The translations under genes were made by a program, and so were the position numbers. Below are positions 11,956 to 27,769 of a stretch of 64,000 bases of DNA, in pieces. The notes beneath the pieces are model-generated. The model made no database searches. It saw nothing but the letters and a program-made list of their open reading frames with translations, and had not been told where the DNA came from. Origin of the DNA: a virus; the UHGV virus genome UHGV-1455077; one strand, 5' to 3'. The first letter of the stretch is position 1. Every line of letters starts with the position of its first letter.

Positions 11956-12041
11956 GCAGAGTTATACCGTAGGAGTAGCGGGACAGACTGTAAATCTGTT
12001 GCCTTTTGGCTCGGGTGGTGCGACTCCATCACTCTGCACCA
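11956..12041 (+). tRNA. tRNA-Tyr(GTA), long variable arm, CCA encoded
   Basis: Acceptor GCAGAGT/ACTCTGC; anticodon loop CTGTAAA; T-arm GGTGG-TGCGACT-CCATC. Confidence 0.7.
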
Positions 12042-12051
12042 TTATTTTAAT

Positions 12052-12127
12052 GGCACTCTAGCAACCACGGTTGATGCGTCTGTCTGAAGAACAGAATAAC
12101 TCGGTTCGACTCCGAGGGGTGCCACCA
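12052..12127 (+). tRNA. tRNA-Phe(GAA), CCA encoded
   Basis: Acceptor GGCACTC/GGGTGCC; anticodon loop CTGAAGA; T-arm CTCGG-TTCGACT-CCGAG. Confidence 0.7.
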
Positions 12128-12135
12128 ATTTTATT

Positions 12136-12215
12136 CGGGTAGTTGGGGAGTTTGGTTACCCCGCTTGCTTTGGGAGCAAGAGAACTCGCAGGTTCGAATC
12201 CTGCCTACCCGACCA
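12136..12215 (+). tRNA. tRNA-Pro(TGG), CCA encoded
   Basis: Acceptor CGGGTAG/CTACCCG; anticodon loop TTTGGGA; T-arm GCAGG-TTCGAAT-CCTGC. Confidence 0.65.
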
Positions 12216-12299
12216 TTTTTAATAAATTAAATGTTCCAATAGTTTCTAACTAGCTAGTAGAATAAAGGATAATAACCTTTTTGGAACGCCGAGTTTCTT

Positions 12300-12377
12300 G
12301 GGCCAGTAGTTCAGTTAGGGAGAACGCCTGCTTTGCAAGCAGGATGTCGTGGGTTCGATTCCCACCTGTGTCCACCA
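12300..12377 (+). tRNA. tRNA-Ala(TGC)-like with a one-nucleotide bulge in the 3' acceptor strand (G3:U70 retained)
   Basis: GGGCCAG...anticodon loop TTTGCAA...T-arm GTGGG-TTCGATT-CCCAC...CTG(T)GTCC-A-CCA. Confidence 0.5.
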
Positions 12378-12663
12378 ATTTTTAAAAAGATTTGTGATAG
12401 GTGAAAACTATCATAAAAATGGGTAAATGCATACCGTTAGTCACAAGCATTCGGAGTCAGCCGCTTCGTTAGATAAGGGTATCGCCGTTTGAGATTTTAA
12501 GCGTTATTAATAAATCTCACCAGTTAGGTAGACAACTCCTGATTTGACTAATCCAGAACATTAGGTGAAGATGTTTTTAATATATATTGAAAAGAGAAGC
12601 CGAGCGTCACTCGCTCTAAAGGAGTAATTGTAAATCGCTCACCAATTTATTTAAGTTTAAAAA

Positions 12664-13008
12664 ATGATAGAATTAAGAAATTGTAAAAAACACGGTTTAA
12701 CAGAATTTTCATATCATAAATCTGGTAATAGATGGAGATGTAAAAAATGTATGGTTGAAGCTGTTAAATTAAGAAGGAAAAAAATTAAAGAAAAAGCTGT
12801 CGAATATAAAGGTGGAAAATGCGAAATCTGTGGATATAATAAATGTATAGATGCATTAGAATTTCATCATTTAAATCCAAAAGAAAAAGATTTTGGAATT
12901 GGAGAAAAAGGTTATACTCGCAGTTGGATAAAAATTCAAGAAGAACTTGATAAATGTATTATGGTGTGTGCAAATTGCCATAGAGAAATACATAATAAAG
13001 ATACGTAA
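12664..13008 (+). CDS. HNH homing endonuclease
   Basis: CxxC...CxxC zinc ribbon plus HNH core (EFHHLNP...CANCHREIH); located inside the tRNA array. Confidence 0.7.
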   Translation: MIELRNCKKHGLTEFSYHKSGNRWRCKKCMVEAVKLRRKKIKEKAVEYKGGKCEICGYNKCIDALEFHHLNPKEKDFGIGEKGYTRSWIKIQEELDKCIMVCANCHREIHNKDT

Positions 13009-13015
13009 TTTTTAT

Positions 13016-13092
13016 TCTGACGTAGCTCAGTTGGTTAGAGCGTTCGCCTGTTAAGCGAAGGGTCATAGGTTCAAGTCCTATCGTCAGAGCCA
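13016..13092 (+). tRNA. tRNA-Asn(GTT), CCA encoded
   Basis: Acceptor TCTGACG/CGTCAGA; D-arm GCTCAGTTGGTTAGAGC; anticodon loop CTGTTAA. Confidence 0.75.
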
Positions 13093-13287
13093 ATATTTAA
13101 TAAAAAATTTGTATGAAAGCTAGTGAGTAATACAGATAGTTTAACCCATCTGTACTTCAACAGGGTTCTTGCCATAGAAATAAATGGTCGTTGGATAGAA
13201 AATGTCAATGTTATGAAAAGGAACATTCAAAGTTTTAGTTTTTGAGTGGTAGTTACTAAATTAACAAATAAACTACCATACTTTTAT

Positions 13288-13363
13288 GGTTCGGTGACAG
13301 AACGATTAATGTACCCGTCTGCAAAACGGTGTTTAGTGGGTTTGACTCCCACCCGAATCTCCA
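13288..13363 (+). tRNA. tRNA-Cys(GCA), CCA encoded
   Basis: Acceptor GGTTCGG/CCGAATC; anticodon loop CTGCAAA; T-arm GTGGG-TTTGACT-CCCAC. Confidence 0.6.
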
Positions 13364-13389
13364 TTATTGTTTTTTCAAAATTTTTAAGA

Positions 13390-13520
13390 ATGGTGAGAAA
13401 TTGATTTACATAGACTGGAAATCCGTGTGTAGAAAGTTCGATTCTTTCCCCATCGACCATTTAACGGTGGGTAGCTCATTGGTAGAGCAACGTAAAATGA
13501 TAATCAATTGTTATGTTCCT
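13390..13520 (+). ncRNA. permuted or split tRNA-like unit 1. A tRNA 3' half (T-arm, 3' acceptor strand, ACCA) precedes a 5' half (5' acceptor strand, D-arm), and is itself preceded by the 25-nt motif
   Basis: 3' acceptor CCCATCG at 13449-13455 pairs 7/7 with 5' acceptor CGGTGGG at 13465-13471, 9 nt downstream. D-arm GCTCATTGGTAGAGC follows. A second copy with compensatory acceptor changes is at 23324-23455. Confidence 0.4.
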
Positions 13521-14178
13521 TCTTAATTTTAAAAGTTTTGGTAGTTGGAAGTTAAGCTTTTGGGGCAGGAGCAACTTAACTTCCATCTATTGATGCGTGT
13601 CCTGATTTAATTAATTACCTTCTCGTGGTTCAGGATGTAAGTAAGAATTGCAGTTTTTGACATAAGACAATTCTGAAACTAAAGATTAATATTAAAATGA
13701 TTTAATTGAAGTATAGTAAATTAAATAAGTTGATTAAATAAGTGAGCAAGATAGAATCAACTAAAGGTAATAATATGCAGATTATATGCCGAACTACTAA
13801 CGCTTAAGGTAGATGTAGGAAATAACCTCGGTAGGGCAATTTAATTGTTAATCTCTTAGAAGTCCTAAAAAAATAAACCGTTTTAAAAAACTGCGTTAAA
13901 TTAAAATTTTGAAATTGTTGTTCTCCTTTCATTGTTTTTCATACAACAAGAGTAAAAATATTCTTAGTATCGGGAGAGGTAATATCTTATCTCTCTCTTT
14001 TTATAAAAATGCTGGCAATATTGGTTCGAATCCAATATGTATATCTTATCCTAAAAATTACTATTATAGTATTAGATTTAAATAGTAATGATATGTCAAA
14101 TTTAATAAGAACGTGTTATTGAATTATATACATTAGTTTAATGGTAGAACCCCAGCATTTCTATAAGAAGATTTTTAT

Positions 14179-14245
14179 GGGTGTATAAGTCAACGGTTAG
14201 ACTAACAGCCTTTTAAGCTGTAGATTCGGGTTCGATTCCTTTATA
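14179..14245 (+). pseudogene. degenerate tRNA-Lys(TTT)-like element
   Basis: D-arm AGTCAACGGTTAGACT and anticodon arm ACAGC-CTTTTAA-GCTGT are present, but the T-stem and 3' acceptor are not recoverable. Confidence 0.25.
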
Positions 14246-14736
14246 ATCAATAATGTATAAGAAAAATAACAAATTTCTTTCTTGATAATTAGGTAATGAA
14301 ATTAATGCCTAATTATGACAAGTATTTAACAAAATTTTCTGACTCTAATCAAAGAATTAGTGATTGATAGTTTAAGAATTATCTGTATACGTGAATGACA
14401 CCCTTTATCAACGTTTGCATACATAACTGCATAAATCAAGATGGGTTAGGTGGTCGTTTATCCGTTTCACCTTTCATATGATAAACAAAACGAAAAACGG
14501 ATTGCATTTTTTATAATATTCAAAATGGGTATTAGATAAGATATTGGTAGCTAGATAACCCAATATATGATAAAAACCATTATTGATAAGGTTTAAGATT
14601 TCGACCTTTAACCCAATGGAAATCCAGTTTATCTATTGTACTTGGTTAACAATAGCGTAGAATTGGTCATTCTCAAAAAGGTACGTAAGCCTTTTTATAT
14701 TAAATAAATATCTTATATAATTTATGAGGTATTAAA

Positions 14737-15159
14737 ATGAAATTAATTGACATATTAGCATTATTTAAAGCTATAAAAAATACTGCTAAAAAATATCATT
14801 GGAAAACTGTTGGCACAACATTTATGTCTGACCATTTATTATTTGATAGAATTTATGATGATATTGATGATGACCAAATTGATACAATTGTTGAACAATA
14901 TTATATGGGTCTTGGAAGAAAAGATATTGATGATTTAGATAATTTAATTGCATTATCTGCTCAATATGAAGGACAGTCTTTTACTGCTTCTTCTGAAAAT
15001 TTATTAATGATGTATCAAGAATTAGCAAGAATGATGAATACATTTTTAGTAAATGTTGAAAAATTAAATTTATTAAGAGGTATAAATTCTGAATTAGATA
15101 ATATTGCATCAACAATTACTCAATTATATGGTTTAGTAACTGCAAGATTAATTCAGTAA
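14737..15159 (+). CDS. hypothetical protein
   Basis: ORF, RBS atgaggtattaaaATG. Confidence 0.4.
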   Translation: MKLIDILALFKAIKNTAKKYHWKTVGTTFMSDHLLFDRIYDDIDDDQIDTIVEQYYMGLGRKDIDDLDNLIALSAQYEGQSFTASSENLLMMYQELARMMNTFLVNVEKLNLLRGINSELDNIASTITQLYGLVTARLIQ

Positions 15160-15190
15160 TTTATAAATTTAATATTATAAACATTTAAAT

Positions 15191-15267
15191 GACCCCATCG
15201 TCTAAATGGTTAGGATACCACCCTTTCAAGGTGAAGATTACGGGTTCAAATCCCGTTGGGGTCGCCA
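15191..15267 (+). tRNA. tRNA-Glu(TTC), CCA encoded
   Basis: Acceptor GACCCCA/TGGGGTC; anticodon loop CTTTCAA; T-arm CGGGTTCAAATCCCG. Confidence 0.7.
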
Positions 15268-15495
15268 ATTTTGGTTGCTATCGGAAATCAAGTGCGAATT
15301 TATGATATGATATATCGGATAAATCATATGGAAAAATGGTAACTTGTGGTACGCCAAACTTAATATGTACCGATAATGTATTAAGTTAAAAATAGCGTTT
15401 TAATATTCAATTTGTCCTTGCCTTTACTTTATAAAGGACTTACAGGCGAGGGGGTGGTCTGGAGTTTAAATAGAGGAAAGTCCCCCAACATTTTT

Positions 15496-15569
15496 GGTGT
15501 ATTAGTTTAATGGTAAAACTCCCGACTGTCTATCGGAAATCAAGGGTTCGATTCCCTTATACACCGCCA
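15496..15569 (+). tRNA. tRNA-Asp(GTC), CCA encoded
   Basis: Acceptor GGTGTAT/ATACACC; anticodon loop CTGTCTA; T-arm AGGGTTCGATTCCCT. Confidence 0.7.
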
Positions 15570-15894
15570 TTTTTTATTTTATGGGAATATTATCATTCGA
15601 TATTATATTTTTATCTATCAAATAGTGATAAATCAACAGCTTAAGATTAGGACACTTAATAAATGAAACAATGTAATTTTTGTGTGTAGTAAAATTTATT
15701 GGTAGTAATTTATTAATATATGGAAAATCTAATGAATCATTAATGTAGAAATACACAACTTTAATGATAGTGAAAAATAATTGTCAATGGTATTTCAAAC
15801 AATTGTTTGATTTGATATATAACCACGATATAATTATATAATCAAGGTTTTACCTTGGTATTCCCCACCAAATTTATTAGAAGGATTTTTAATA

Positions 15895-16221
15895 ATGAAA
15901 TATAAAAAGAAATATATTGTAGTTGGTGCATACAAGATGAAAGATAATACAATTAATTATTCTTTTTATTATATGAATGAATGCTTTTTAAATACTTTTG
16001 CAACAACTTATTCATTAAATGAAGCTAAAGAAATTGTTAAACAGCTTTATAAAAATGTTAAAAAAGTTAATAAGCTAAAGAAAAATCGAAAAAGATATAC
16101 ATATTTCATTGTTAAAGCACATACATCAAAAACAAAATTATCTAATGGAAAATATTTATATATTAATAGAGATATACTTGATGAATTTAGTTCATATTGT
16201 ATTAAATGTGAAATTAAATAA
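15895..16221 (+). CDS. hypothetical basic protein
   Basis: ORF, RBS aggatttttaataATG. Confidence 0.35.
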   Translation: MKYKKKYIVVGAYKMKDNTINYSFYYMNECFLNTFATTYSLNEAKEIVKQLYKNVKKVNKLKKNRKRYTYFIVKAHTSKTKLSNGKYLYINRDILDEFSSYCIKCEIK

Positions 16222-16538
16222 AAATGAGATATATGCCTAATGTTTTCGGTAAAAAATCAAGAAAACAAATGCCTAAATGGTCAAGACATATATCAATAGT
16301 CTGTGGTACCAAATTCCGTAAGGTTCAGCGGGAACTCCTGTATTTATACTTTCCTGCTGGTAAAAAGTTCAGTCATCGAACATAGAATGACCAAACCAGC
16401 GATAAAGGTGGAAAGCCTTTAACAATATATGTGTAGATATGGCGAAAGTTGGTAAAAGCTCCGAGTGATATTGGTTTTAGGTTGTTTGAATTTTGAAGGT
16501 TAAAATTCAATTCCTTTTTCTATGTATATAATTAATTT

Positions 16539-16614
16539 GGGTGTGTAACTTAATTGGTAGAGAAACTGACTCTTAATCAGTATGATGAGGGTTCGAGTCC
16601 CTCTGCACCCACCA
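16539..16614 (+). tRNA. tRNA-Lys(CTT), CCA encoded
   Basis: Acceptor GGGTGTG/TGCACCC; anticodon arm ACTGA-CTCTTAA-TCAGT; T-arm GAGGGTTCGAGTCCCTC. Confidence 0.7.
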
Positions 16615-16629
16615 ATATGTAAATTTAAT

Positions 16630-16705
16630 TGCACCCATAGGCTAATTGGACAAACCCAAAGTCTTCTAAACTTTTATTACAGGTTCGAGTCCTGTTGGGT
16701 GTGCC
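16630..16705 (+). tRNA. tRNA-Arg(TCT), CCA encoded
   Basis: Acceptor GCACCCA/TGGGTGT; anticodon arm AAAGT-CTTCTAA-ACTTT; T-arm ACAGGTTCGAGTCCTGT. Confidence 0.7.
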
Positions 16706-16737
16706 ATTTATAAAAAATGATGAAACGGTGTGGCGGT

Positions 16738-16868
16738 GTACACGTCTGAAAGTAATAGACCTAGACTTTTAGTTTGAAAGTGAAAGCTAAACAAAGGTAT
16801 TACCGTTAGAGGAAGTAAGAAGTCATTGGTTCAACTCCAATTTTCATCACAAATGCTCGGTTAGTTCA
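16738..16868 (+). ncRNA. 131-nt tRNA-like element: acceptor GATGAAA/TTTCATC and a canonical T-arm, but about 55 extra internal nucleotides
   Basis: 5' GATGAAA...ATTGG-TTCAACT-CCAAT-TTTCATC-A; no CCA; the interior does not fold as a standard cloverleaf. Confidence 0.3.
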
Positions 16869-16873
16869 GTTGG

Positions 16874-16949
16874 AAGAACACCGCTTTTACACAGCGGGGG
16901 TCGGCAGTTCGAACCTGTCACCGAGTACCAAAAAATATCTTGACAATAA
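16874..16949 (+). tRNA. tRNA-Val(TAC), CCA encoded
   Basis: Acceptor GCTCGGT/ACCGAGT; D-arm GTTCAGTTGGAAGAAC; anticodon arm CCGCT-TTTACAC-AGCGG. Confidence 0.7.
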
Positions 16950-16958
16950 ATAAAATAA

Positions 16959-16987
16959 ATTATATAATAAAGTTATATTGGAAAGTC
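16959..16987 (+). promoter_or_regulatory. sigma70-like promoter TCTTGACA-17-TATAAT, 11 nt upstream of tRNA-Gln
   Basis: Consensus hexamers. Confidence 0.55.
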
Positions 16988-16997
16988 ATCTAAGGGT

Positions 16998-17071
16998 AGG
17001 ATAGCGGACTTTGACTCCGTTCATACTGGTTCGAATCCAGTCTTTCCAGCCATTTTTTAACTGGGGTTATG
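16998..17071 (+). tRNA. tRNA-Gln(TTG), with U1:A72 and G73 as in bacterial tRNA-Gln
   Basis: TGGAAAG...anticodon loop CTTTGAC...ACTGG-TTCGAAT-CCAGT-CTTTCCA-G-CCA. Confidence 0.7.
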
Positions 17072-17336
17072 ACTGTTATTCCCCATTCAGGTAAATGATA
17101 CAGCTATTGTTATGAAGTAACACGTTGAGGAATACTATCGTGAAAAAGTATTGGTTTGTTGGTTATTTGTTAGATATGTCAAAGTTTTGGAATTCCCAAA
17201 AACCTGAAATCAACAGGGTATAATAAAACATCCTTGAGTTATATTAAGTTTGTCTTAAAGCATTTAATATAAACATTAAAGTTTTATTCGTGAATACTGA
17301 AACAATGTTAAGTACGTTAATCTTAACAATGTTAAT

Positions 17337-17428
17337 GGAATGTTACCCAAGTCTGGTGAAGGGGACTGTTTGCTAAACAGTTAGGAGCAGTAATGTTCGC
17401 AGAGGTTCAAATCCTCTACATTCCGCCA
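17337..17428 (+). tRNA. tRNA-Ser(GCT), type II long variable arm
   Basis: Acceptor GGAATGT/ACATTCC; anticodon arm ACTGT-TTGCTAA-ACAGT; T-arm AGAGGTTCAAATCCTCT; discriminator G plus CCA. Confidence 0.7.
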
Positions 17429-17458
17429 TTTTGAAAAATAATTTTTCAAAAAAAGTTC

Positions 17459-17487
17459 TTGACAATATAAATTAAATATATTATATT
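17459..17487 (+). promoter_or_regulatory. sigma70-like promoter TTCTTGACA-17-TATATT
   Basis: Consensus hexamers; roughly 400 nt of non-coding sequence downstream, before tRNA-Ile. Confidence 0.5.
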
Positions 17488-17891
17488 AAGTTCATAAGGA
17501 GTTACCATTAGTCCTTAAATCACAATCATAATGGCGTTAGAATATCACGAGACGATATTTGGTTTGTAGTTATCCAGAACTATAATGTCACAATACGGAC
17601 ATTTCGTAAATTTAAAAACTGTATTGCGTGGCTGATTACCCATACCATTACGACAAGATGGTTAAAAAATTTAGGTTAAAATGTGATTCCTATAAATCAA
17701 AAAAGACATTCTTTTACTATTTTAGAGTTAGAAAATAGCGTTCATAATTAGAGTGAAATTATCGGTGAATTTGATATTACATCGTGATAAAAAATATTGA
17801 AGGAAGGAAAACCGTGTTGAAACCTTATTTAATCATTGTTATAAATGATTCGTGGTGATTCAATAACTATTACGTGAATATAGTTTTTAAT

Positions 17892-17969
17892 AGGCTCGTG
17901 GTGTTAATGGTTGGCACGTTCGCCTGATAAGCGAGAGGTTTGTGAGTTCGAATCTCACCGAGCCTACCA
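17892..17969 (+). tRNA. tRNA-Ile(GAT), CCA encoded
   Basis: Acceptor AGGCTCG/CGAGCCT; anticodon loop CTGATAA; T-arm GTGAGTTCGAATCTCAC. Confidence 0.65.
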
Positions 17970-18004
17970 AATTAAAATTAATTTTTTGTGGGAGTATAAA
18001 ATAA

Positions 18005-18217
18005 ATGCCAATGGAAAAGAAAGTTCTTACACAGGAAGAAAAAGAACTTAAAAAGAAAGAACAAGAATTTAATAAACATATGAATCAAGTATGGAAGCTA
18101 AGACCATATAAAATTAATGGAATTTCTAAGAATGTTGGTAAAGCTCCAAAATGTAATACAAAAGTTAAAACTGAAAGACCAGTTGAAATGGTAAATCAGA
18201 AAAAGAAAAAGAAGTAA
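18005..18217 (+). CDS. small Lys-rich basic protein
   Basis: ORF of 70 aa with a poly-K tail. Confidence 0.3.
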   Translation: MPMEKKVLTQEEKELKKKEQEFNKHMNQVWKLRPYKINGISKNVGKAPKCNTKVKTERPVEMVNQKKKKK

Positions 18218-18358
18218 TTAAAAAATATTTTTAATCGAAATTGAGTAAATCTTGAATATTTTATATTTGCAAGATAAATGCGATAGAGTAGCGAGAATCG
18301 AACGCTTGTAACAAATGTTCGGCTGTTAGAGTTCAGTATAAAAACTCATTTTTCTTAT

Positions 18359-18438
18359 TCTCTGGTAGCTAAACTGGTTGTAGCGGCGGTCTTATAAACC
18401 GTGTCTTTATGTGAGTTCAAGTCTCATCCAGAGAACCA
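18359..18438 (+). tRNA. tRNA-Ile(TAT)-like (AUA decoder), CCA encoded
   Basis: Acceptor TCTCTGG/CCAGAGA perfect; anticodon arm CGGT-CTTATAA-ACCG; T-arm GTGAGTTCAAGTCTCAT. Confidence 0.55.
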
Positions 18439-18836
18439 TTTTAAAAAATTTTTCAGAAATATATAAAATGGAACAAATGCTAGATAGTTCAATTCTATCA
18501 ATCTTGTTAAAGATAAAGGACGGTATTTGAAAAGGTTTGAAGCCCATTATATTACTGAAATTTGGTTCAGACAATATCCATACAGCCGTATAACGTGTGG
18601 TGAGCCAATTAATTTATGGGTCGCTCCCAATTAACGAATGGGTCTGATGACTTTTATAATTTTTCAATAAGAAAAAGTGTTGCAACAACCATTGATATAA
18701 AATCGTTTGCTAACAAGTTCGTGTATATCATATATGGTTAATAATGTTAGAGGAATAATTTGATATTTTGACTATGTAGAAAATATCCGATAGATTGGAT
18801 AATCTTCATAAATCATTCGTTAAGTGATTATTTTAA

Positions 18837-18909
18837 TGCGGAATAGAGCAGAGGTAGCTTAACTGGCTCATAACCAGGAGGTCGGGCGGTTCGAATCCCC
18901 CTTCCGCAA
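18837..18909 (+). tRNA. tRNA-Met(CAT), elongator-type (U1:A72 paired); no CCA encoded
   Basis: TGCGGAA...D-arm GAGCAGAGGTAGCTT...anticodon loop CTCATAA...GGCGG-TTCGAAT-CCCCC-TTCCGCA-A. Confidence 0.6.
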
Positions 18910-19014
18910 CATCTAACAAAAGCAAAACCTTTACGTGGTGTTAGATATAAGTAATTCGATTTGAATGAAACCAATTTGCTTAATTATTGAAAAATAGATA
19001 TTTAAGGTTCAATA

Positions 19015-19680
19015 ATGTATTACCTAATTTATAAAATAACTAATAATGTAAATAATAAAATCTATATTGGAAAACATCAAACGGAAAATAAAGATGATGA
19101 TTATATGGGTTCTGGAAAAATAATAAAAAGAGCTATTGAAAAATATGGTATAGATAAATTTACAAAAGAAATATTATATGAATGTAATTCATTAGAAGAA
19201 ATGAATGAAAAAGAAGCAGAAATTGTTGATGAAGAATTTGTTGTTCGTTTAGATACATATAATATTAAATTAGGTGGTCAAGGTGGATGGGATTATGTCC
19301 ATAAATATACTGATTGGAATGGATTTAAATATATAAATTCACAAAAGTTAAATAATAAATCGAATCAGTATAAAATATCTGCTGAAAAACTTAAAAATGA
19401 TGAAAAATATGCAAAAGAATTTTCTTTAAAAATTTCTAATGGATTAAAATTATATTACCAATTACATAATAATCCATTTAAAGGGAAAAAACATACAATT
19501 GAATCAAAAATAAAAATTGGTAAAGCAAATGCTATTAAACAAGCTGGTGAAGGAAATTCCAATTATGGAAAATGTTGGATTTATAATGAAGAATTAAAAG
19601 AAAATAAATCTATTAAAAAAGAAAATTTACAATCTTGGTTAGAGAAAGGTTGGAAAAAAGGGAGAAAAATGAAATTTTAA
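19015..19680 (+). CDS. GIY-YIG homing endonuclease (Seg/I-TevI-like)
   Basis: N-terminal YYLIYKITNNVNNKIYIGKH GIY-YIG motif with conserved Arg, Glu and Asn downstream. Confidence 0.75.
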   Translation: MYYLIYKITNNVNNKIYIGKHQTENKDDDYMGSGKIIKRAIEKYGIDKFTKEILYECNSLEEMNEKEAEIVDEEFVVRLDTYNIKLGGQGGWDYVHKYTDWNGFKYINSQKLNNKSNQYKISAEKLKNDEKYAKEFSLKISNGLKLYYQLHNNPFKGKKHTIESKIKIGKANAIKQAGEGNSNYGKCWIYNEELKENKSIKKENLQSWLEKGWKKGRKMKF

Positions 19681-19811
19681 ATTATTTATATAATTTAATT
19701 TTTTACTGGTAGGTACGAAGATAGCTCAAATACCTCGTTAAACTAAATAGTCGTGCTATCCGCAAACCTTTAGGAAGTAAATGGCGTTATAAGTAACTTC
19801 CTGTTTATAAT

Positions 19812-19886
19812 GGCAATGTAGTGAAAAGGTTATCACGACTGACTCATATTCAGTAATTTCAAGTTCGATTCTTGACATTGCTACCA
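19812..19886 (+). tRNA. tRNA-Met/fMet/Ile2(CAT), second CAT-anticodon tRNA, CCA encoded
   Basis: Acceptor GGCAATG/CATTGCT; D-arm GTGAAAAGGTTATCAC; anticodon arm ACTGA-CTCATAT-TCAGT; T-arm TCAAG-TTCGATT-CTTGA. Confidence 0.65.
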
Positions 19887-19916
19887 TTCATTATTAACTT
19901 GTGGGATATTAATTTA

Positions 19917-21080
19917 ATGACAAATTACATTATAAATAATAATATCGTCAGAATTTTTGGCGAAGATGAAATCAATATTAAACCAGAAATTCCATTAGGA
20001 ACATATTTGGTTAAAGAAAATGAATTAACAGGTGAATTGTTTTTAGAAAGAACAGCAGATTTTGTAAAGCCTGAAAAAATATATGGAGAATGTGAATTCC
20101 AATCTGAACGAATTATTAAAACATTTAAAGACAGACCTAATAATACTGGAGTTCTTTTAAATGGTGCAAAAGGTTCAGGAAAAACATTTTTAACTAAGTA
20201 TATTTCCTATAAGCTTTTAAAAGATAATTATCCAACAATAATTATTAATGATATATTTAGTCCAACAAAGTTATCTTTATTAATTCAAACAATTAGTGAA
20301 CCTTGTGTCATTATTTTTGATGAATTTGAAAAAATTTATCAATCAAATAAAAAAGATGATTTGCAAAACCCACAGAATGGTTTACTTTCATTGCTTGATG
20401 GTTTATTTCAAACTAAAAAGCTATTCATCTTTACTTGTAATGATGATAGTAATATTTCAGATTTGATGAAGAATAGACCTGGTAGAATTTTTTATAAATT
20501 GGAATTTAAAGGAATTACTGAAAAAACAATTGAAGAATATTGTGAAGAAAAATTAAATAATAAATCATATATTTCTCAAATTTTTAGTATTCGTAAAATG
20601 ATTAAAGATTTTACCTTTGATATTTTACAAGCAATTGTTGAAGAAGTTAATCGTTATAATGAAACTCCTTTAGATGTTGTTAAAATGCTTAATGTAACTC
20701 CAGAATCTTTATATGCAAAATATACTGTATCAATTAAGCCATTAAAGAATCAACAAATTGTAAAATTTGAAAAATCTTTATGGGTAAATCCATTATCTTC
20801 AGAAGAAGAATCAGTATGGATTTATAGAACTAAAACATCAAATGCAGATGATAATAAATATGTTGTTGAAGACGAGGATATTAAAATTTGTGAGCTTAGT
20901 TGTGAAACTGATGATGATGAAGATAATAATGTTAAAACAGTTACTGATTATTTTCCAGTATCATTGCTTACAATGGTATCATCTAACAAAAATACTTATG
21001 TGTATCAGAATGAAGAATATCAGGTTACTTTAACTAAAAAGATTATTGATACTGATGATATGTGGAAGTATGCATTTTAA
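19917..21080 (+). CDS. AAA+ family ATPase. Start moved to MTNYII, downstream of the tRNA
   Basis: Walker A GAKGSGKT, Walker B IIFDEFE, sensor RPGRIF. The listed ORF start at 19872 overlaps the tRNA. Confidence 0.6.
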   Translation: MTNYIINNNIVRIFGEDEINIKPEIPLGTYLVKENELTGELFLERTADFVKPEKIYGECEFQSERIIKTFKDRPNNTGVLLNGAKGSGKTFLTKYISYKLLKDNYPTIIINDIFSPTKLSLLIQTISEPCVIIFDEFEKIYQSNKKDDLQNPQNGLLSLLDGLFQTKKLFIFTCNDDSNISDLMKNRPGRIFYKLEFKGITEKTIEEYCEEKLNNKSYISQIFSIRKMIKDFTFDILQAIVEEVNRYNETPLDVVKMLNVTPESLYAKYTVSIKPLKNQQIVKFEKSLWVNPLSSEEESVWIYRTKTSNADDNKYVVEDEDIKICELSCETDDDEDNNVKTVTDYFPVSLLTMVSSNKNTYVYQNEEYQVTLTKKIIDTDDMWKYAF

Positions 21081-21268
21081 AAAATTATTGACATATAAAA
21101 AATATTATGTTAATTGTTATAACAAAAGGGAAAATAAAAAACGCCCCTCTGTTAGAAATATATGAGTAGAAATAACAAGTCGTTAAGAAGATTCGCCTTA
21201 TCTAACAAGGTTAAAGAGTTTTTTCCTAAAGATGATTTAGGTTTGATGATAAATCAGTAAAAAATATA

Positions 21269-21297
21269 TTGACATATGTTAATTATTATGATATATT
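21269..21297 (+). promoter_or_regulatory. sigma70-like promoter TTGACA-17-TATATT
   Basis: Consensus hexamers; precedes the structured non-coding region. Confidence 0.45.
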
Positions 21298-21299
21298 TA

Positions 21300-21880
21300 A
21301 TTATATTTTAATTTTAAGTAATATATTAAAATCATTTAATAATTGGTTGGCAAGACCAATAGGATGCCTTTTTAAGGCAATGAAAGTAAAATCTTTCTTT
21401 TAATATATGAAGATAAATTATGTCGTGAATGATTTAGTCGGAGAGATAAGCGACTAAGATAAAATAAAAAAATCTCAAATTCCATAGACGTATGGACGGC
21501 ATAATAAATTAAATTGTTGTAACTCAAACAATGGGTAGCCTGCCCATAAGAGTATGCTGGATAATCTGAAAAGATTTGAAGGTAGTTGTGAGTAATACGA
21601 ATCATAAGGTTGAAATAGCCACGGTTGGCTAACCGTGAGTGACGTAAGAACCAGACAAATCGTACAGATGAATAGGTCTGATGGCTGTATCTGGTTGGGA
21701 GTAGTCATTCTCCCCATCCATTAAGCAAAGGAGTAATTAACCTTTGTGGGTGTGACTGAATAATGTGTCGTATGAGGGGCTTGTTGGTAGTCAGGAGTCC
21801 AACCAATAATTTAATTTTAACAGTTTGTGGCAGTCGTTCTGTTTAAAAACTCTGCCTTTTTAAACAAACAGATAGTGATT
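21300..21880 (+). ncRNA. roughly 580-nt ORF-poor region with many stable hairpins; candidate large structured RNA of unassigned family
   Basis: Hairpins TAGTCGgagagataagCGACTA, ATGGGtagcctgCCCAT, CACGGTTggctAACCGTG, GGGAGtagtcattCTCCC, and CTGTTTAAAAA...TTTTTAAACAAACAG. GACTA and TAGTC elements could form a group-I-like P7 helix. Confidence 0.3.
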
Positions 21881-22095
21881 ATTAGATTTACATAGTTCGA
21901 TTCTATATTTTTTCATATAAAAAGGAAAAATGCCAAAAGGGTGGCGTTTACAATCTAATGAATTTTCTTCTGTTTATTTAAAAATTTTCGATAGTGAGTA
22001 TAAGATTTACATAGACCAGACTTTTAATCTGACATTTACAAAATCTTATAGATTGTTCTTCGAATTAATACTTTTTTGTGAATAGTGAGATATTA

Positions 22096-22170
22096 GGTTT
22101 ACATAGCTAAAGTGGTTAAAGCATTTGACTTGAAATCAAAGTATTGTAGGTTCGATTCCTACTGTAATTT
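22096..22170 (+). tRNA. tRNA-like, anticodon TGA (Ser codons) but type I (no long arm); one-nucleotide bulge in the 5' acceptor strand; preceded by the 25-nt motif
   Basis: GGTTTACA-TA-GCT...AGC-A-TTTGA-CTTGAAA-TCAAA-GTATT-GTAGG-TTCGATT-CCTAC-TGTAATT. Confidence 0.35.
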
Positions 22171-22244
22171 TAACTTAATAAAATGTTCTTTCACAAATTT
22201 AATTATTTGACACTTTATTATAAATGTTATATAAATAATAATAT

Positions 22245-22330
22245 GGAAGGTAACTGGCTGGATGAAGACACCGACTTGAAATCGGCTGGGCGTAACTGCT
22301 TTGGGGGTTCGAGTCCCTCACCTTCCGCCA
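22245..22330 (+). tRNA. tRNA-Ser(TGA), type II, CCA encoded
   Basis: Acceptor GGAAGGT/ACCTTCC; anticodon arm CCGA-CTTGAAA-TCGG; long variable arm; T-arm GGGGTTCGAGTCCCTC. Confidence 0.7.
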
Positions 22331-22337
22331 TTTTTAT

Positions 22338-23031
22338 TTGGTATTGTGGGATATGATAAAAGTAAGTAGAAAAGAATACGAAAATAATCCAGAAAAATAT
22401 ATTATATATTGTACAAAATGTAAAAAACCAATAATATTTAAAGATTATAGACATTATTGTGATAGAGTTAATAAAATTAATATTAGACATCATCAACCAT
22501 TTTGTTCAAAAGAATGCTCATATGAATATCATAGATTATTTACAAATAAAGGAATTTGTGATTTTTGTGGTAAAGAGTTTATTAGACAAAATGTTTATGG
22601 GGATAAAAGACAAAAACATACATTTTGTTCACAAAAATGTTCTGCAAAATATTTTAATAGTCATAAAAAATTTGGTTATAGAAAATCAAAAGCTGAAGAA
22701 TATATTGTAAGTCAATTAAAAAAAAGATTATCCGTATTTAAATATTAAAGAAAATGATGTATCAACAATAGGTAAAGAACTTGATATTTATTTACCAGAT
22801 TTAAATTTAGCATTTGAAATTAATGGTATAGTTCATTATAAACCTATATATGGAAAAGAAAAGTTAAATAAAATACAAAATAATGATTTTTTTAAAAAAG
22901 AATTATGTGAAAGTAAAAATATTTTATTGACAATAATTAATATAAGTGATATAAAAGTATTTAAAGAGAATTTAATTATAAATAAATATAATTACATTAA
23001 AGAAATTATAAGTAATACAATGCCACGATAG
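22338..23031 (+). pseudogene. frameshifted Zn-finger/Vsr-like endonuclease gene
   Basis: Frame 0 (22338-22748) encodes a Cys/His-rich domain. The +1 frame from an A-run at 22720 continues as ...GKELDIYLPDLNLAFEINGIVHY... (Vsr/PD-(D/E)xK-like) to 23031, ending inside tRNA-Thr. Confidence 0.4.
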
Positions 23032-23086
23032 CTCAACTGGCAGAGCAACCGATTTGTAATCGGTAGGTTGGGGATTCGACTTCCTC
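23011..23086 (+). tRNA. tRNA-Thr(TGT), CCA encoded
   Basis: Acceptor GCCACGA/TCGTGGC; D-arm GCTCAACTGGCAGAGC; anticodon arm ACCGA-TTTGTAA-TCGGT. Confidence 0.75.
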
Positions 23087-23323
23087 TCGTGGCACCAGAT
23101 TTTAATAAGCTCCCCCGCTAAAGATACTTTGTGTATACAGCGAATATGGGTCAAAGTTTAAACTTTGCATTAAATTATAATAATTGTACAATAAAAAATT
23201 ATGTGAGCATTTTTTAATTTTGTATGGTAATAGTGACTTAAAGAATTACATAGATAACTGATTATTGTCTGCCAAAACAAGAAATTCTTTAAAATTATTC
23301 TTTACCATTTAAACTATTTTAGC

Positions 23324-23455
23324 AATAGTGAGAAAAGGATTTACATAGGTTTGTAACCCGTTGGTAATTGGTTCGAATCCAATCAAGTAATTGAAATATA
23401 TTATTTGTAGCTCATTGGTAGAGCAACGATAAAAAATAATCCTTTATTATGTTCT
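23324..23455 (+). ncRNA. permuted or split tRNA-like unit 2 (paralog of unit 1 at 13390-13520)
   Basis: 25-nt motif, then T-arm ATTGG-TTCGAAT-CCAAT, then 3' acceptor CAAGTAA. Ten nt later 5' acceptor TTATTTG pairs 7/7, followed by TA, D-arm GCTCATTGGTAGAGC and a conserved hairpin ATAAT...TTAT-GTTC. Confidence 0.4.
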
Positions 23456-23489
23456 TTGCTAACAAATATTTGGTGATAGTGATTAATTA

Positions 23490-23563
23490 GGTTTACATAG
23501 CTTAATGGTTAGAGCATTGATTTAACACATCAAACGTTACAGGTTCAACTCCTGTTGTAATTA
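23490..23563 (+). tRNA. tRNA-like, anticodon AAC, bulged 5' acceptor strand; preceded by the 25-nt motif
   Basis: GGTTTACA-TA-GCTT-AATGGTTA-GAGC...TTGAT-TTAACAC-ATCAA...ACAGG-TTCAACT-CCTGT-TGTAATT. Confidence 0.3.
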
Positions 23564-23643
23564 ATACCTAATTTACTATTCTTCACCAGTTCAATTTTGC
23601 ACCCAAGAACATATGTTCTTGGGTATTTTTTTATATAAGTTAT

Positions 23644-24205: not shown

Positions 24206-24214
24206 AAAAAGTAG

Positions 24215-24243
24215 TTGACTAATAAAACTAAAAATGTTATAAA
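24215..24243 (+). promoter_or_regulatory. sigma70-like promoter TTGACT-17-TATAAA
   Basis: Upstream of the Ro60-like gene. Confidence 0.4.
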
Positions 24244-24277: not shown

Positions 24278-25564
24278 ATGAAAACAAATAAAGCTGAAAA
24301 GAAACCAGCAATTTACACTAATGAAGGTGGTAAAGCATCTCATATTAGTGATTTAGAAGAATTGAAAAGAGCAACAATGTCTTGTTTGCTTTGGGAAGAT
24401 AACTTCTATGAAGATGGTGTATCAATTGCTGACAGAATTACCTCTTTAGTTAAAAATTGTATTGATAAAGGTCATTATGATGATGTAATTGATATTTTGA
24501 AAACTGTAAAATTTGATATGAGATTACGTCATTGTCCATTGTGGATGATTGTTGCAATTTATAAAGCAGGTAAAACTATTGATAAGAATGTTATTGCATC
24601 TATTCTTACAAGACCAGATGATATGGGAGAATTACTTTCTCTTTATCGTAAAGACCAAGCAAATGCACCTATTCCAAATGCTATGAAAAAAGCTATGGCT
24701 ATTGCCATTACTAAATTTGATGAATATCAATTGGCTAAATGGAATCGTGATGCTAATTACAAATTGGTTGATATTGTAAACATTTGTCATCCACAAGTAA
24801 CTGAAGCTATTGATAAGTTGGTTAAAGGAACTTTAGAAACTCCAAAAACTTGGGAAGTTCTTCTTTCTGCCGCTGGTTCTGATAAAGAAAAGAAAAAAGA
24901 AGCTTGGTTGGATTTGATTGAAACTAATAAATTACCTGATATGGCTCTTTTGAAGAATATTCGTGGTATGTTGGATGTAGGTGTTTCTAAAAACACATTG
25001 GTTGACCGTATTAATAATATTAAAAATGGTAGATTATTGCCAATTGATTATATTAGAGCGGCAAATACAAATCCATCATTGGAAAATGAAATTGAAAAGA
25101 AATTCTTAAATTGCTTTGAAAAACCTTCTTTGAATGGTAAGACTGCAATTTTAGTAGATGTGTCAGGTTCTATGGATGGAGAAAGATTAAATTATGCAAA
25201 TGCATTAGCGATGATTGGTCGTGAAATGTGTGAAAATGTTGATATTTACTCATTCTCTAATGAAGTCAAATTCATTCCAAATCGTAGAGGATTTGCTTTA
25301 GCAGAAGCTATTGATAAATCACAATACCATAATGGAACTTATATGTGGGATGCTATTAGTACAGTTGAAAAAGCTCATTACGATAGATTAATTGTTATTA
25401 CTGATGAGCAAACAATGGGTATGCCACACAACGCAGTTATTAAAAATGCATACATTATTAATGTTGCACCATATAATAAAGGTGTTGGTTACAATAATGG
25501 TTACAAACATATTAATGGTTTTTCAGATAAAGTATTTAATTATATTACTGAAATTGAAAAATAA
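24278..25564 (+). CDS. Ro60/Rsr-like protein: TROVE-like N-terminal region plus C-terminal von Willebrand A domain with MIDAS motif
   Basis: N-terminus NEGGKASHISDLEELKRATMSCLLWEDNFYEDG resembles the Ro60 TROVE start (N.dGGy...L.RfL.fGsEggtYY). vWA domain ILVDVSGSMDG with downstream T and D residues. Confidence 0.45.
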   Translation: MKTNKAEKKPAIYTNEGGKASHISDLEELKRATMSCLLWEDNFYEDGVSIADRITSLVKNCIDKGHYDDVIDILKTVKFDMRLRHCPLWMIVAIYKAGKTIDKNVIASILTRPDDMGELLSLYRKDQANAPIPNAMKKAMAIAITKFDEYQLAKWNRDANYKLVDIVNICHPQVTEAIDKLVKGTLETPKTWEVLLSAAGSDKEKKKEAWLDLIETNKLPDMALLKNIRGMLDVGVSKNTLVDRINNIKNGRLLPIDYIRAANTNPSLENEIEKKFLNCFEKPSLNGKTAILVDVSGSMDGERLNYANALAMIGREMCENVDIYSFSNEVKFIPNRRGFALAEAIDKSQYHNGTYMWDAISTVEKAHYDRLIVITDEQTMGMPHNAVIKNAYIINVAPYNKGVGYNNGYKHINGFSDKVFNYITEIEK

Positions 25565-25920
25565 TTAAATAAATATAATAAACAAACCCGATAGGCTTCT
25601 TATTTAATGAGTAGTATGGGTATATTGGTTAAAGTTAGACTTGCCCCCCTCTGCTACTCACATCAATAAATGCTTCTCGTTAGTCCACGAAGATTAACCG
25701 CCTAGATATTGATGAGTTTAAATACAGCACAATTATCTTTCTGGAATTGACCAGATAAGTTTATTAATATTCCTAGGTTCAATTAATAAATGGGTAGATT
25801 TATTTTTAACTTAATAAATTCCAATCAAAAAATTTAATTATAAGTATTAAAATATAAGTTGGAGTTTAGTGTTAATTAATTTAACAAGAAGGATTGATTT
25901 CTTTCTTGTTAAATTATTTT
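25565..25920 (+). ncRNA. 350-nt non-coding region downstream of the Ro60-like gene; candidate Y-RNA-like partner
   Basis: No ORF. Helix TGAGTAG...CTACTCA (25608/25648) and a terminal hairpin TTAACAAGAAggattgatttcTTTCTTGTTAA at 25881-25912 followed by a T-run. Confidence 0.25.
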
Positions 25921-25921
25921 T

Positions 25922-26158
25922 GTGAAAAAGGATATGAAAATGTTAAATTTGAAAAGTATTTTAAATGATAATATGAGAGTTAAATTTGATTTTTATCGTG
26001 ATGGTGCTTTATGGTATTCAACAATGAATGGGTTTCAATTTCCTGTTCCTGTGAGAACTTTAGCCGCAACATCAATATTAAAAGCTAATGATAAAGCAAC
26101 AGCATTCAGTTATTATATTAAAAAATACTATAATGAATTAAATAAAAATAAGGAATAA
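25922..26158 (+). CDS. hypothetical protein
   Basis: ORF. Confidence 0.35.
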   Translation: MKKDMKMLNLKSILNDNMRVKFDFYRDGALWYSTMNGFQFPVPVRTLAATSILKANDKATAFSYYIKKYYNELNKNKE

Positions 26159-27600: not shown

Positions 27601-27689
27601 GGTGGACGTAGCCAAGTTGGTCGAAGGCGTTAGATTGTGGCTCTAATACATTAGAAACATCGTGGGTTCGAATCCCACCGTTCACCCCA
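27601..27689 (+). tRNA. tRNA-His(GTG)-like with G-1 and C73, but an unusually long variable region
   Basis: G(-1)-GTGGACG...D-arm GCC-AAGTTGGTCGAA-GGC...anticodon arm TTAGA-TTGTGGC-TCTAA...GTGGG-TTCGAAT-CCCAC-CGTTCAC-C-CCA. Confidence 0.5.
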
Positions 27690-27692
27690 GAT

Positions 27693-27769
27693 GGCTCGTT
27701 AGGCGAATTGGCATAGCCGTCTGTCTTAGGTACAGATGTTTGGGGGTTCGAGTCCCTCACGAGCTACCA
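27693..27769 (+). tRNA. tRNA with anticodon TAG (Leu CUA codon) but a short type-I variable arm, CCA encoded
   Basis: Acceptor GGCTCGT/ACGAGCT; anticodon arm TCTGT-CTTAGGT-ACAGA; T-arm GGGGG-TTCGAGT-CCCTC. Confidence 0.55.

Follow-up and report, generated by a model that had tools for sequence, protein, structure and literature searches.

The 64,000-nucleotide stretch of the virus genome UHGV-1455077 analyzed here (the window) is an A+T-rich stretch from an uncultured giant phage and encodes a compact ortholog of the Ro60 protein at 24278–25564 on the + strand. Between this gene and the next one, which starts at 25922, lies a gap of 357 nt (25565–25921), in which we identified a conserved structured RNA, element 1 (25581–25804, + strand), built as a four-helix junction. 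No type of Y RNA tested accounts for element 1, which is a separate structured RNA and might be an additional partner or substrate of the phage Ro60. The preliminary description of this stretch had proposed a phage Ro60-Y RNA module with its RNA in the gap. Y-type copies occur upstream of the gene and none in the gap, and the module is therefore present, with its Y RNAs in the upstream tRNA island and not where they had been expected.

On neither strand does the gap contain an open reading frame (ORF) of more than 26 aa, in keeping with the ORF-free stretch announced after the gene, and it shows a local rise in G+C. Its predicted fold reaches -86 kcal/mol compared with -59.8 ± 5.1 kcal/mol for shuffled sequences (z = -5.1), and two of its blocks are nearly invariant in relatives with Ro60 proteins 69–86% identical. 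Together with the compensatory changes in the helices described below, the fold z-score and the near-invariant core demonstrate that the signal in the gap exceeds chance. We collected 12 distinct copies of element 1, and the covariance model of the element (R1) matches it in all clade members with 63–122 bits. Relatives with 72–78% protein identity carry a compact RNA of 105–109 nt directly past the stop codon, whereas the copy in the window extends to 224 nt because of two inserted hairpins.

The junction is closed by P1, which pairs ACCC (25586–25589) with GGGU (25792–25795) and shows a C-G to U-A change among the copies. P2 pairs GAUAG (25590–25594) with UUAUC (25733–25737), with G-C to A-U and A-U to G-C changes, and P2 and the adjoining P2b (GCU, 25595–25597, with AGC, 25726–25728) close a variable region. 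P3 is a hairpin of 5 bp (25740–25755; UCUGG, loop AAUUGA, CCAGA), the second pair of which is C-G, U-A, G-C, or A-U depending on the lineage, thereby taking all four Watson-Crick forms, whereas its loop, GGAAWKRACC, is nearly invariant. P4 (25760–25790) abuts the 3' strand of P1 and consists of a 9-bp stem, in which five pairs have changed on both sides, and a loop of 13 nt (10–14 nt across the copies). All four helices lie on the + strand. If the opposite strand were read, the G.U pairs of P4 and P2, of which that in P2 is conserved, would turn into A.C mismatches, and element 1 is therefore read from the + strand.

In the model-registered alignment, which includes two bad rows and one misregistered group, 86.7% of the cells pair, compared with 73.4% in shuffles (none of 500 reaches the observed value) and 29–49% with slid partners. 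For the group of locus L022 (L-numbers denote TROVE loci of related phages), P1, P2, and P4 are out of register in both the MAFFT and the model-fitted alignment, and the row of the window begins inside the second insert. Because of the misregistered rows, we added a hand-registered pair table of eight sequences, in which, with its own bias toward structure, 94.6% of the positions are paired and 11 of the 26 pairs have changed on both sides; neither value was reached by any of 2000 shuffles. Independent single-sequence folds returned the same helices in most copies. These folds and the four forms of the P3 pair make a structured RNA the clear reading of the gap. Several further pairings and products were considered and rejected. 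A pseudoknot between AAUUG of the P3 loop and an upstream CAAUU is altered on one side alone in the L022 group and L014, and L013, L306, and L014 do not allow UAGG on the 5' strand to pair with the palindrome of the P4 loop. A helix outside P1 that would lengthen this stem (AAUAAA/UUUAUU in the window) is not kept in L002 or L013; inspection of the flanks of these two and the window by eye, unscored, found no conserved extension, and such a helix is likely to arise by chance in A+T-rich flanks. Small peptides can be dismissed because of the absence of any ORF above 26 aa and because the indels (43, 52, and ~65 nt) are not multiples of three.

The P4 loop always holds a self-complementary stretch of 6–10 nt, the sequence of which varies by lineage: CCUAGG in the window (25772–25777), and AUCCAUGGAU, GAUGCAUC, ACCGGU, UCCGGA, or UCUGGA, the latter with one wobble pair, in the relatives. 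The last loop of element 2, a second RNA described below, is likewise palindromic (CAGCUG or CAUAUG). The chance of finding each palindrome in its own shuffled loop is 6–26%. Since a palindrome is unable to pair inside a single loop, loop-loop pairing of two molecules is the simplest reading at the RNA level, and the palindromic loop may thus let two copies of element 1 pair loop to loop. The dimerization initiation site (DIS) kissing loop of HIV-1 is similar in having a 6-nt self-complementary loop that is kept self-complementary across lineages, although it belongs to a retroviral genome and element 1 is a phage small RNA for which dimerization is a prediction.

The length of element 1 in the window is accounted for by the two inserts. 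The first inserted hairpin (25608–25660, + strand) has a predicted stem of UGAGUAG and CUACUCA around a C-rich loop. It corresponds to the long-range TGAGTAG/CTACTCA helix of the preliminary description, which is indeed present as the arms of a hairpin (25608–25614 and 25654–25660) but turned out to be a lineage-specific insert: it occurs in the window, L002–4, L017/18, and L308 and is missing from the compact L013, L014, L015, L306, L312, L022, L307, and L311. Its stem is invariant and therefore beyond covariation testing. The second inserted hairpin (25661–25714, + strand) is a 52-nt insertion relative to L002–4, found only in the phage of the window, and its 3' half is an inverted near-repeat of the 5' strand of P4 with the palindromic loop (25760–25777). 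In the unconstrained fold of the window RNA, the second insert pairs with P4 (-52.0 kcal/mol), compared with -47.7 kcal/mol for the fold with the consensus enforced, a difference of 4.3 kcal/mol.

Element 1 is followed by the remnant of element 2 (25817–25866, + strand), which was recognized by alignment with the relatives and retains the closing stem AAUUCCAA/UUGGAGUU and one hairpin after a 43-nt deletion relative to L002–4. Alignment, consensus fold, and single folds give the relatives a full element 2 of ~110 nt with a four-helix topology like that of element 1, and R1 weakly matches element 2 of L014 (26 bits). Judged by alignment and predicted topology, element 2 is a decayed paralog of element 1 in the window. 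The gap ends with an intrinsic-terminator-like site (25877–25921, + strand), a 17-bp hairpin with a 6-nt loop (25877–25916) and a TTTTTGT tail, confirming the terminal hairpin and T-run reported from the first inspection. The stem contains only 3 G-C pairs among 17; terminator-like sites number 4 in the region compared with 0.6 expected. The terminator is kept in L002–4, L017, and L308, and an equivalent hairpin follows element 1 or 2 in L013, L014, L015, L306, and L307. It is probable that this site marks the end of a Ro60-element 1 transcription unit.

The ORF at 24278–25564 (+ strand, 428 aa) contains the strings TNEGGKASH, SCLLWEDNFYEDG, and DVSGSMDG, from which a Ro60 architecture had originally been proposed. 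This proposal was borne out by profile and structure comparisons. The Pfam TROVE family (PF05731) matches with 63.6 bits, far above its cut-off of 23 (E = 2.5e-17), and a profile of 42 homologs aligns full-length with the Ro60 of phage phiLo (9KOP/9L5Y; residues 12–430, E = 1.8e-29). The stand-alone Pfam vWA models, by which the C-terminal domain was also to be recognized, remained under their cut-offs (VWA_2, 18.8 vs 27; vWA_Ro60, 12.1 vs 27.7). [quoted passage not shown] The AlphaFold2 (AF2) model (pLDDT 88.7, pTM 0.83) is helical to residue 278 with an alpha/beta domain beyond, resembling a ring of TROVE/HEAT repeats with a C-terminal vWA domain. The best Foldseek matches in the PDB were 9kop, 9l5y, 9nep, 1yvp, 2i91, 2nvo, 1yvr, and 9nen (E 6e-17 to 1e-8, TMq 0.62–0.67), covering every solved Ro60: phiLo, Xenopus (1YVP/1YVR/2I91), Deinococcus Rsr (2NVO), and human (9NEN). 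The C-terminal part of the model additionally matches vWA domains. On sequence and model, the ORF is a compact Ro60 ortholog of the phage type, with putative RNA binding. The family is large, with 5,206 matches among the candidates scored, and all 120 homologs among the matches listed carry PF05731 or PF25045; the homologs from cultured phages (Ralstonia RsoM2USA, Xanthomonas phages, Caulobacter CcrColossus, and crAss-like phages) are at most 41% identical. Upstream of the gene, a GGAG ribosome-binding site is found at ~24265, and a promoter-like site (TTGACT, 17 nt, TATAAA) can be read at 24214–24243 on the + strand. The latter is not listed in the consensus promoter scan because the scan demands T as the last base of the -10 element; the relatives have TTGACA-17-TATAAT at the equivalent position.

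The Y-like RNAs of the locus were identified with R2, a covariance model of the simple Y stem module of the clade. The module consists of stem a, an internal loop AUAGUGA/UGUUCUU, and stem b, with GAUUUACAUAG on its 5' side, a motif found 9 times in the window compared with 2.7 expected. R2 matches exactly seven sites in the window, all on the + strand with 37–72 bits, and five of these seven are outside its training set. Two are of the YrlA type, three are simple or of other forms, and two are built around complete unpermuted tRNA-like cloverleafs. They belong to the island of tRNA genes mentioned in the preliminary description; tRNA genes are present on both sides of the locus (11958–23563 and 27602–27769). 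The YrlA-type Y1 (13385–13527) lies 10.8 kb upstream of the Ro60 gene and is matched both by R2 (37.2 bits) and by RF02553, the Rfam model used as the test for YrlA (42.5 bits, E = 4.8e-6; gathering score 69). Y2 (21867–21976, 43.6 bits with R2), Y3 (21987–22067, 72.4 bits, a training sequence), and Y4 (22077–22197, 37.9 bits) follow one another closely. Y5 (23225–23309, 72.2 bits, also a training sequence) is a simple hairpin of two stems around an AUAGUGA-UUCUU internal loop. Y6 (23320–23463, 37.8 bits, non-training), 815 nt upstream of the Ro60 start, is a YrlA-type tRNA mimic with a T-arm (AUUGG-UUCGAAU-CCAAU), a closing stem-loop, and the D-arm UAGCUCAUUGGUAGAGCA; its RF02553 match scores 35.4 bits with E = 5.3e-4 in the whole window and 2.1e-6 locally. 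Y7 (23471–23590, 41.2 bits) is a Y stem around a complete unpermuted cloverleaf, and a terminator-like hairpin at ~23600–23632 closes the Y5-Y6-Y7 tandem (23225–23590).

The two RF02553 matches in the window, 13407–13520 and 23334–23448, the latter 830 nt before the Ro60 gene, are both under the gathering score, and the T-arm, closing stem-loop, and D-arm of Y1 and Y6 align to the model. RF02553 also matches RNAs beside the TROVE gene in L311, L022, L021, L307, and L309 (E 3e-9 to 1e-2, below 69 bits). Y4 wraps a sequence called tRNA-Ser(tga) by ARAGORN (22096–22171), which is without the long variable arm, and the tRNA-Val(aac) called within Y7 (23491–23563) has an unusual A34; both are enclosed in extended Y-type stems. 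Instead of ordinary tRNAs, Y4 and Y7 may be either Y RNAs whose tRNA-like core is unpermuted or precursors of tRNAs equipped with a Ro60 handle. To our knowledge, seven copies with two of them on unpermuted tRNA-like cloverleafs go beyond anything described.

Element 1 was encountered only in a small, uncultured clade. Every detection by R1 was at a locus with a TROVE protein sharing 69% or more identity with that of the window, and none was found by the R1 scan in ~80 loci with relatives of 37–61% identity. All 12 distinct genomes with element 1 have it at most ~520 nt from the TROVE gene and on its strand, and three gene orders occur. The first is TROVE, element 1, element 2, terminator, and a gene of 78 aa. 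In the second, found in L307, an inserted ORF of 64 aa separates TROVE and element 1; a 13-residue remnant of the TROVE C-terminus is placed 8 nt before element 1, and direct adjacency is therefore ancestral there too. The third order (L022, L311) is tRNA, element 1, element 2 or a Y-like RNA, YrlA, terminator, promoter-like site, and TROVE. Five genomes with elements 1 and 2 (L013, L014, L015, L306, and L312) show no Y-like RNA within 2.5 kb. Scanning 185,579 species by pattern, independently of the protein and with one genome each, gave one true match, located 13 nt after a TROVE gene of 77% identity. With the loose pattern GGAAWTRACC...ATGGG..TAGA, ~200 loci were retrieved from viral and metagenome collections, of which a profile filter left the known contigs and one duplicate. 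No match was obtained with the compact-form pattern in the viral collection or by near-identity DNA search in cultured phage genomes.

Could element 1 itself be a Y RNA? Chen et al. (2014; PMC4201824) described the Y RNAs of bacteria by GNCGAAN0-1G as a 5' motif and YrlA as a tRNA mimic of T-arm, closing stem, and D-arm, listed candidates in 22 phages with the criterion of at most 4 kb from Ro60 on the same strand, and noted that some Ro60-bound RNAs escaped bioinformatic discovery. Element 1 starts 17 nt past the stop codon on the + strand, which is within this distance and on the strand of Ro60, and its 5' CCCGAUAGG contains CGAU and resembles GNCGAAN0-1G or CGAA; CGAUAG is also found at the stem/loop junctions of Y3 (21988) and of the YrlA of L307. 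The homologs, however, have CCCAGUAGG, CUCGGUUGG, and CUCCGCAAG at this place, and the motif is therefore not conserved in the element 1 family. The covariance searches were also negative. RF02553 gave nothing in 25500–26000 at E ≤ 10, nor in the gap in the whole-window scan, although as a positive control it detected seven related phage RNAs including the two in the window. The tRNA-clan models of Rfam gave no match in 25500–26000 at E ≤ 10, and R2 gave none in 25565–25921 at E ≤ 1. A pattern of T-loop, stem-loop, and D-arm matched 25 of 105 TROVE loci and none in the gap of the window, and Rfam 15 has no family for element 1 or element 2 in the window and seven relatives. Element 1 has no T or D arms, and the long bulged stem formed by the 5' and 3' ends was not seen, the closing stem P1 having only 4–5 bp without conserved extension. 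Vertebrate Y RNAs have pyrimidine-rich loops, and the loop of the first insert is similar in this respect. On balance, we regard a divergent YrlA or YrlB in the gap, bound by Ro60 through CCCGAUAGG, as very improbable, and the gap RNA is no Y RNA of any tested type.

We tentatively favor, with rather less than even confidence, element 1 as a candidate for an extra RNA, specific to the clade, that the phage Ro60 would take as partner or substrate beside the Y RNAs. In the phage of the window, it would form the 3' portion of the Ro60 transcript, given that its start lies just past the stop codon and the terminator lies beyond it. It would probably act as a stable RNA in trans, since elsewhere it belongs to an array of small RNAs preceding the gene and seems to have a promoter of its own; L022 and L311 have a terminator and a promoter-like site between element 1 and the TROVE gene. 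The short closing stem and U-rich single-stranded tail of element 1 resemble the misfolded RNAs accepted by Ro60 in the Xenopus Ro60-RNA structures. Several observations weigh against this role. Element 1 has none of the marks of a Y-type ligand, namely the long bulged stem, the T and D arms, or a match to RF02553 or R2, and CGAU at the P1/P2 junction is replaced by CAGU, CGGU, or CGCA in relatives. The covariation comes from about five independent lineages, and both the model-fitted and the hand-registered alignments are biased toward structure. Several relatives of 37–61% identity carry Y-like RNAs without element 1, and Ro60 therefore does not need it. Lastly, comparison of L002 and L017 shows a sharp mosaic breakpoint, the mark of recombination, placed exactly between the TROVE stop and element 1 (L017 ~3796): the TROVE gene is 66–88% identical per 100 nt, compared with 94–98% for the next ~1.1 kb with element 1, element 2, the terminator, and two small genes. 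Element 1 has thus moved jointly with the two downstream genes, and 10 of the 12 genomes have the 78-aa gene after element 1.

The breakpoint, the frequent presence of the 78-aa gene, and the lack of Y-RNA features would also fit elements 1 and 2 being an independent small RNA of the phage RNA island, or a partner of the downstream genes of 78 and 139 aa, with its adjacency to Ro60 being incidental; the neighbors in the dense small-RNA and tRNA array of L022 and L311 are possibly unrelated. A linkage of element 1 to the downstream genes is possible on the gene orders. Nevertheless, every genome has a terminator between element 1 and the 78-aa gene where the latter follows, for which reason we rejected a role as the leader of that gene, and the L022 and L311 loci have no 78-aa gene, yet element 1 lies within ~420 nt of TROVE. 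Linkage to TROVE in 12 of 12 genomes and three arrangements, compared with 10 of 12 for the 78-aa gene, makes TROVE the most constant neighbor, and the L307 remnant points to ancestral adjacency. We therefore consider an independent RNA a serious but on the whole unlikely explanation. The position of element 1 at 17 nt past the stop codon, with 10 of the 12 genomes having it right behind the gene, the very stable fold, and the strong terminator at the end would suit a 3' untranslated region guarding the Ro60 message in cis from 3'-to-5' exonucleases or aiding termination, without function in trans. In L022 and L311, however, element 1 is upstream of the gene behind a terminator and promoter-like site and therefore is not part of the 3' end of that message, and mere stability requires neither invariant loops (AAUUGA, AGCACAAU) nor a kept palindrome or a conserved four-helix architecture; a purely cis-acting region thus appears quite improbable. 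Still less credible, and to our minds highly improbable, is that the conserved features act as DNA, as protein-binding or recombination sites without any RNA. The loop palindromes are indeed DNA palindromes of 6–10 bp and the 5' edge of element 1 coincides with the recombination breakpoint, but compensatory changes maintain four helices with G.U pairs valid only in the + strand RNA, and a DNA site would need no such long-range pairing. A bolder proposal, which we think unlikely though more plausible than these last two, is that elements 1 and 2 would form a new class of Ro60-associated RNA with an architecture foreign to Y RNAs, namely cloverleaf-like molecules of four helices that would pair with each other by a palindromic loop and so bridge two Ro60 rings or present a tRNA-shaped decoy or substrate, by which the phage would redirect host RNA-decay or tRNA-targeting enzymes.

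As a candidate partner of Ro60, element 1 has to be compared with known systems. Phage Ro60 genes flanked by Y RNAs are already known (PMC4201824, PMC12135203), and some jumbo phages have been reported to encode TROVE proteins (PMC7824862). The phiLo Ro60 binds two adjacent upstream phage RNAs (Yrl1/Yrl2) of the stem-bulge-stem type with CGAA in 2:2 complexes, and CGAA mutations weaken the binding of Yrl2 (PMC12135203). phiLo (9KOP, 9L5Y) is the best match in sequence and structure, sharing the compact TROVE ring and vWA domain with LVDVSGSM...ITDEQT and phage small RNAs adjoining the gene on the same strand. It differs in the length of the protein (500 aa compared with 428 aa in the window, at ~22% identity) and in its RNAs, which are upstream stem-bulge-stem molecules with CGAA, whereas element 1, known from sequence alone, is a four-helix junction without conserved CGAA. 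Y1 and Y6 share with YrlA (RF02553) the terminal stem, the permuted T-arm, the closing stem-loop, the D-arm, and the strand of Ro60, but they score 35–43 bits, below the gathering score, and have (A/G)GUGA instead of GNCGAAN0-1G as the 5' motif; element 1 has no match to the model at all. Salmonella YrlB and Deinococcus Yrn2, each a second and simpler Y RNA beside rsr (Chen et al., 2014), exemplify loci with more than one Ro60-linked RNA, some without a full tRNA-like module. These RNAs keep the 5' Ro-binding motif and a long stem, of which element 1 has neither, and YrlB finds its better counterparts in Y3 and Y5. A full-text search of the literature found no paper describing elements 1 or 2. 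By these comparisons, the Ro60 protein and the YrlA-type RNAs upstream add new members to kinds already known, whereas elements 1 and 2 are unclassified and new.

A number of additional features were observed in the RNA islands of the window and its relatives. In L311, a gene-free stretch of 2.2 kb upstream of the TROVE gene (28–2300) is dense in promoter-like sites (TTGACA...TATAAT) and structured RNAs, comprising element 1, two simple Y-like RNAs, one YrlA-type RNA, and one tRNA-like sequence not called by ARAGORN. Weak matches to the manA RNA motif (RF01745) recur in the islands of three related phages, at 21726–21813 in the window, 494–808 in L311, and 794–884 in L307 (23–26 bits compared with the gathering score of 55, E 0.006–0.07). 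At 11958–12036, 13288–13360, and 22245–22326 of the window, Rfam gives two extra tRNA matches uncalled by ARAGORN (29.8 and 46.8 bits) and a sub-threshold match similar to tRNA-Sec (30.7 bits). The tRNA and Y-RNA island also contains an ORF of 402 aa (19872–21080) for an NTPase of the AAA/STAND type with AAA, nSTAND3, and NACHT matches and, between Y4 and a tRNA-Thr gene, an ORF of 136 aa (22338–22748) with matches to FCS-type zinc fingers (zf-FCS, 23.5 bits). In L306, the TROVE gene is closely preceded by an IS605-type TnpB/OrfB gene (752–2128; PF12323, PF01385, PF07282). Genes for phosphoesterases (Metallophos, His_Phos_1) are found repeatedly 0.1–1.5 kb downstream of the TROVE gene in relatives (L309 3892–4458, L310 1778–2344, L311 4514–5047, L022 4730–5263, L014 4835–5991, and L017 4945–5556) and may indicate a context of RNA end-healing or repair; none was identified near the Ro60 gene in the window.

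Ro60 and its Y RNAs constitute an ancient RNA-surveillance system, the function of which in bacteria and phages is poorly understood. The locus presented here combines a compact phage Ro60 with a rich set of candidate RNAs, seven Y-like RNAs of three architectures and element 1. If Ro60 does not bind element 1, elements 1 and 2 would still represent a new RNA motif of giant phages with candidate loop-loop dimerization. If it does, the range of Ro60 ligands would be wider than the present definitions, and searches by motif or by the YrlA model would miss part of it. Should elements 1 and 2 indeed form a new class of Ro60-associated RNAs, the recruitment of RNA partners of distinct structure by Ro60 proteins would have happened more than one time.

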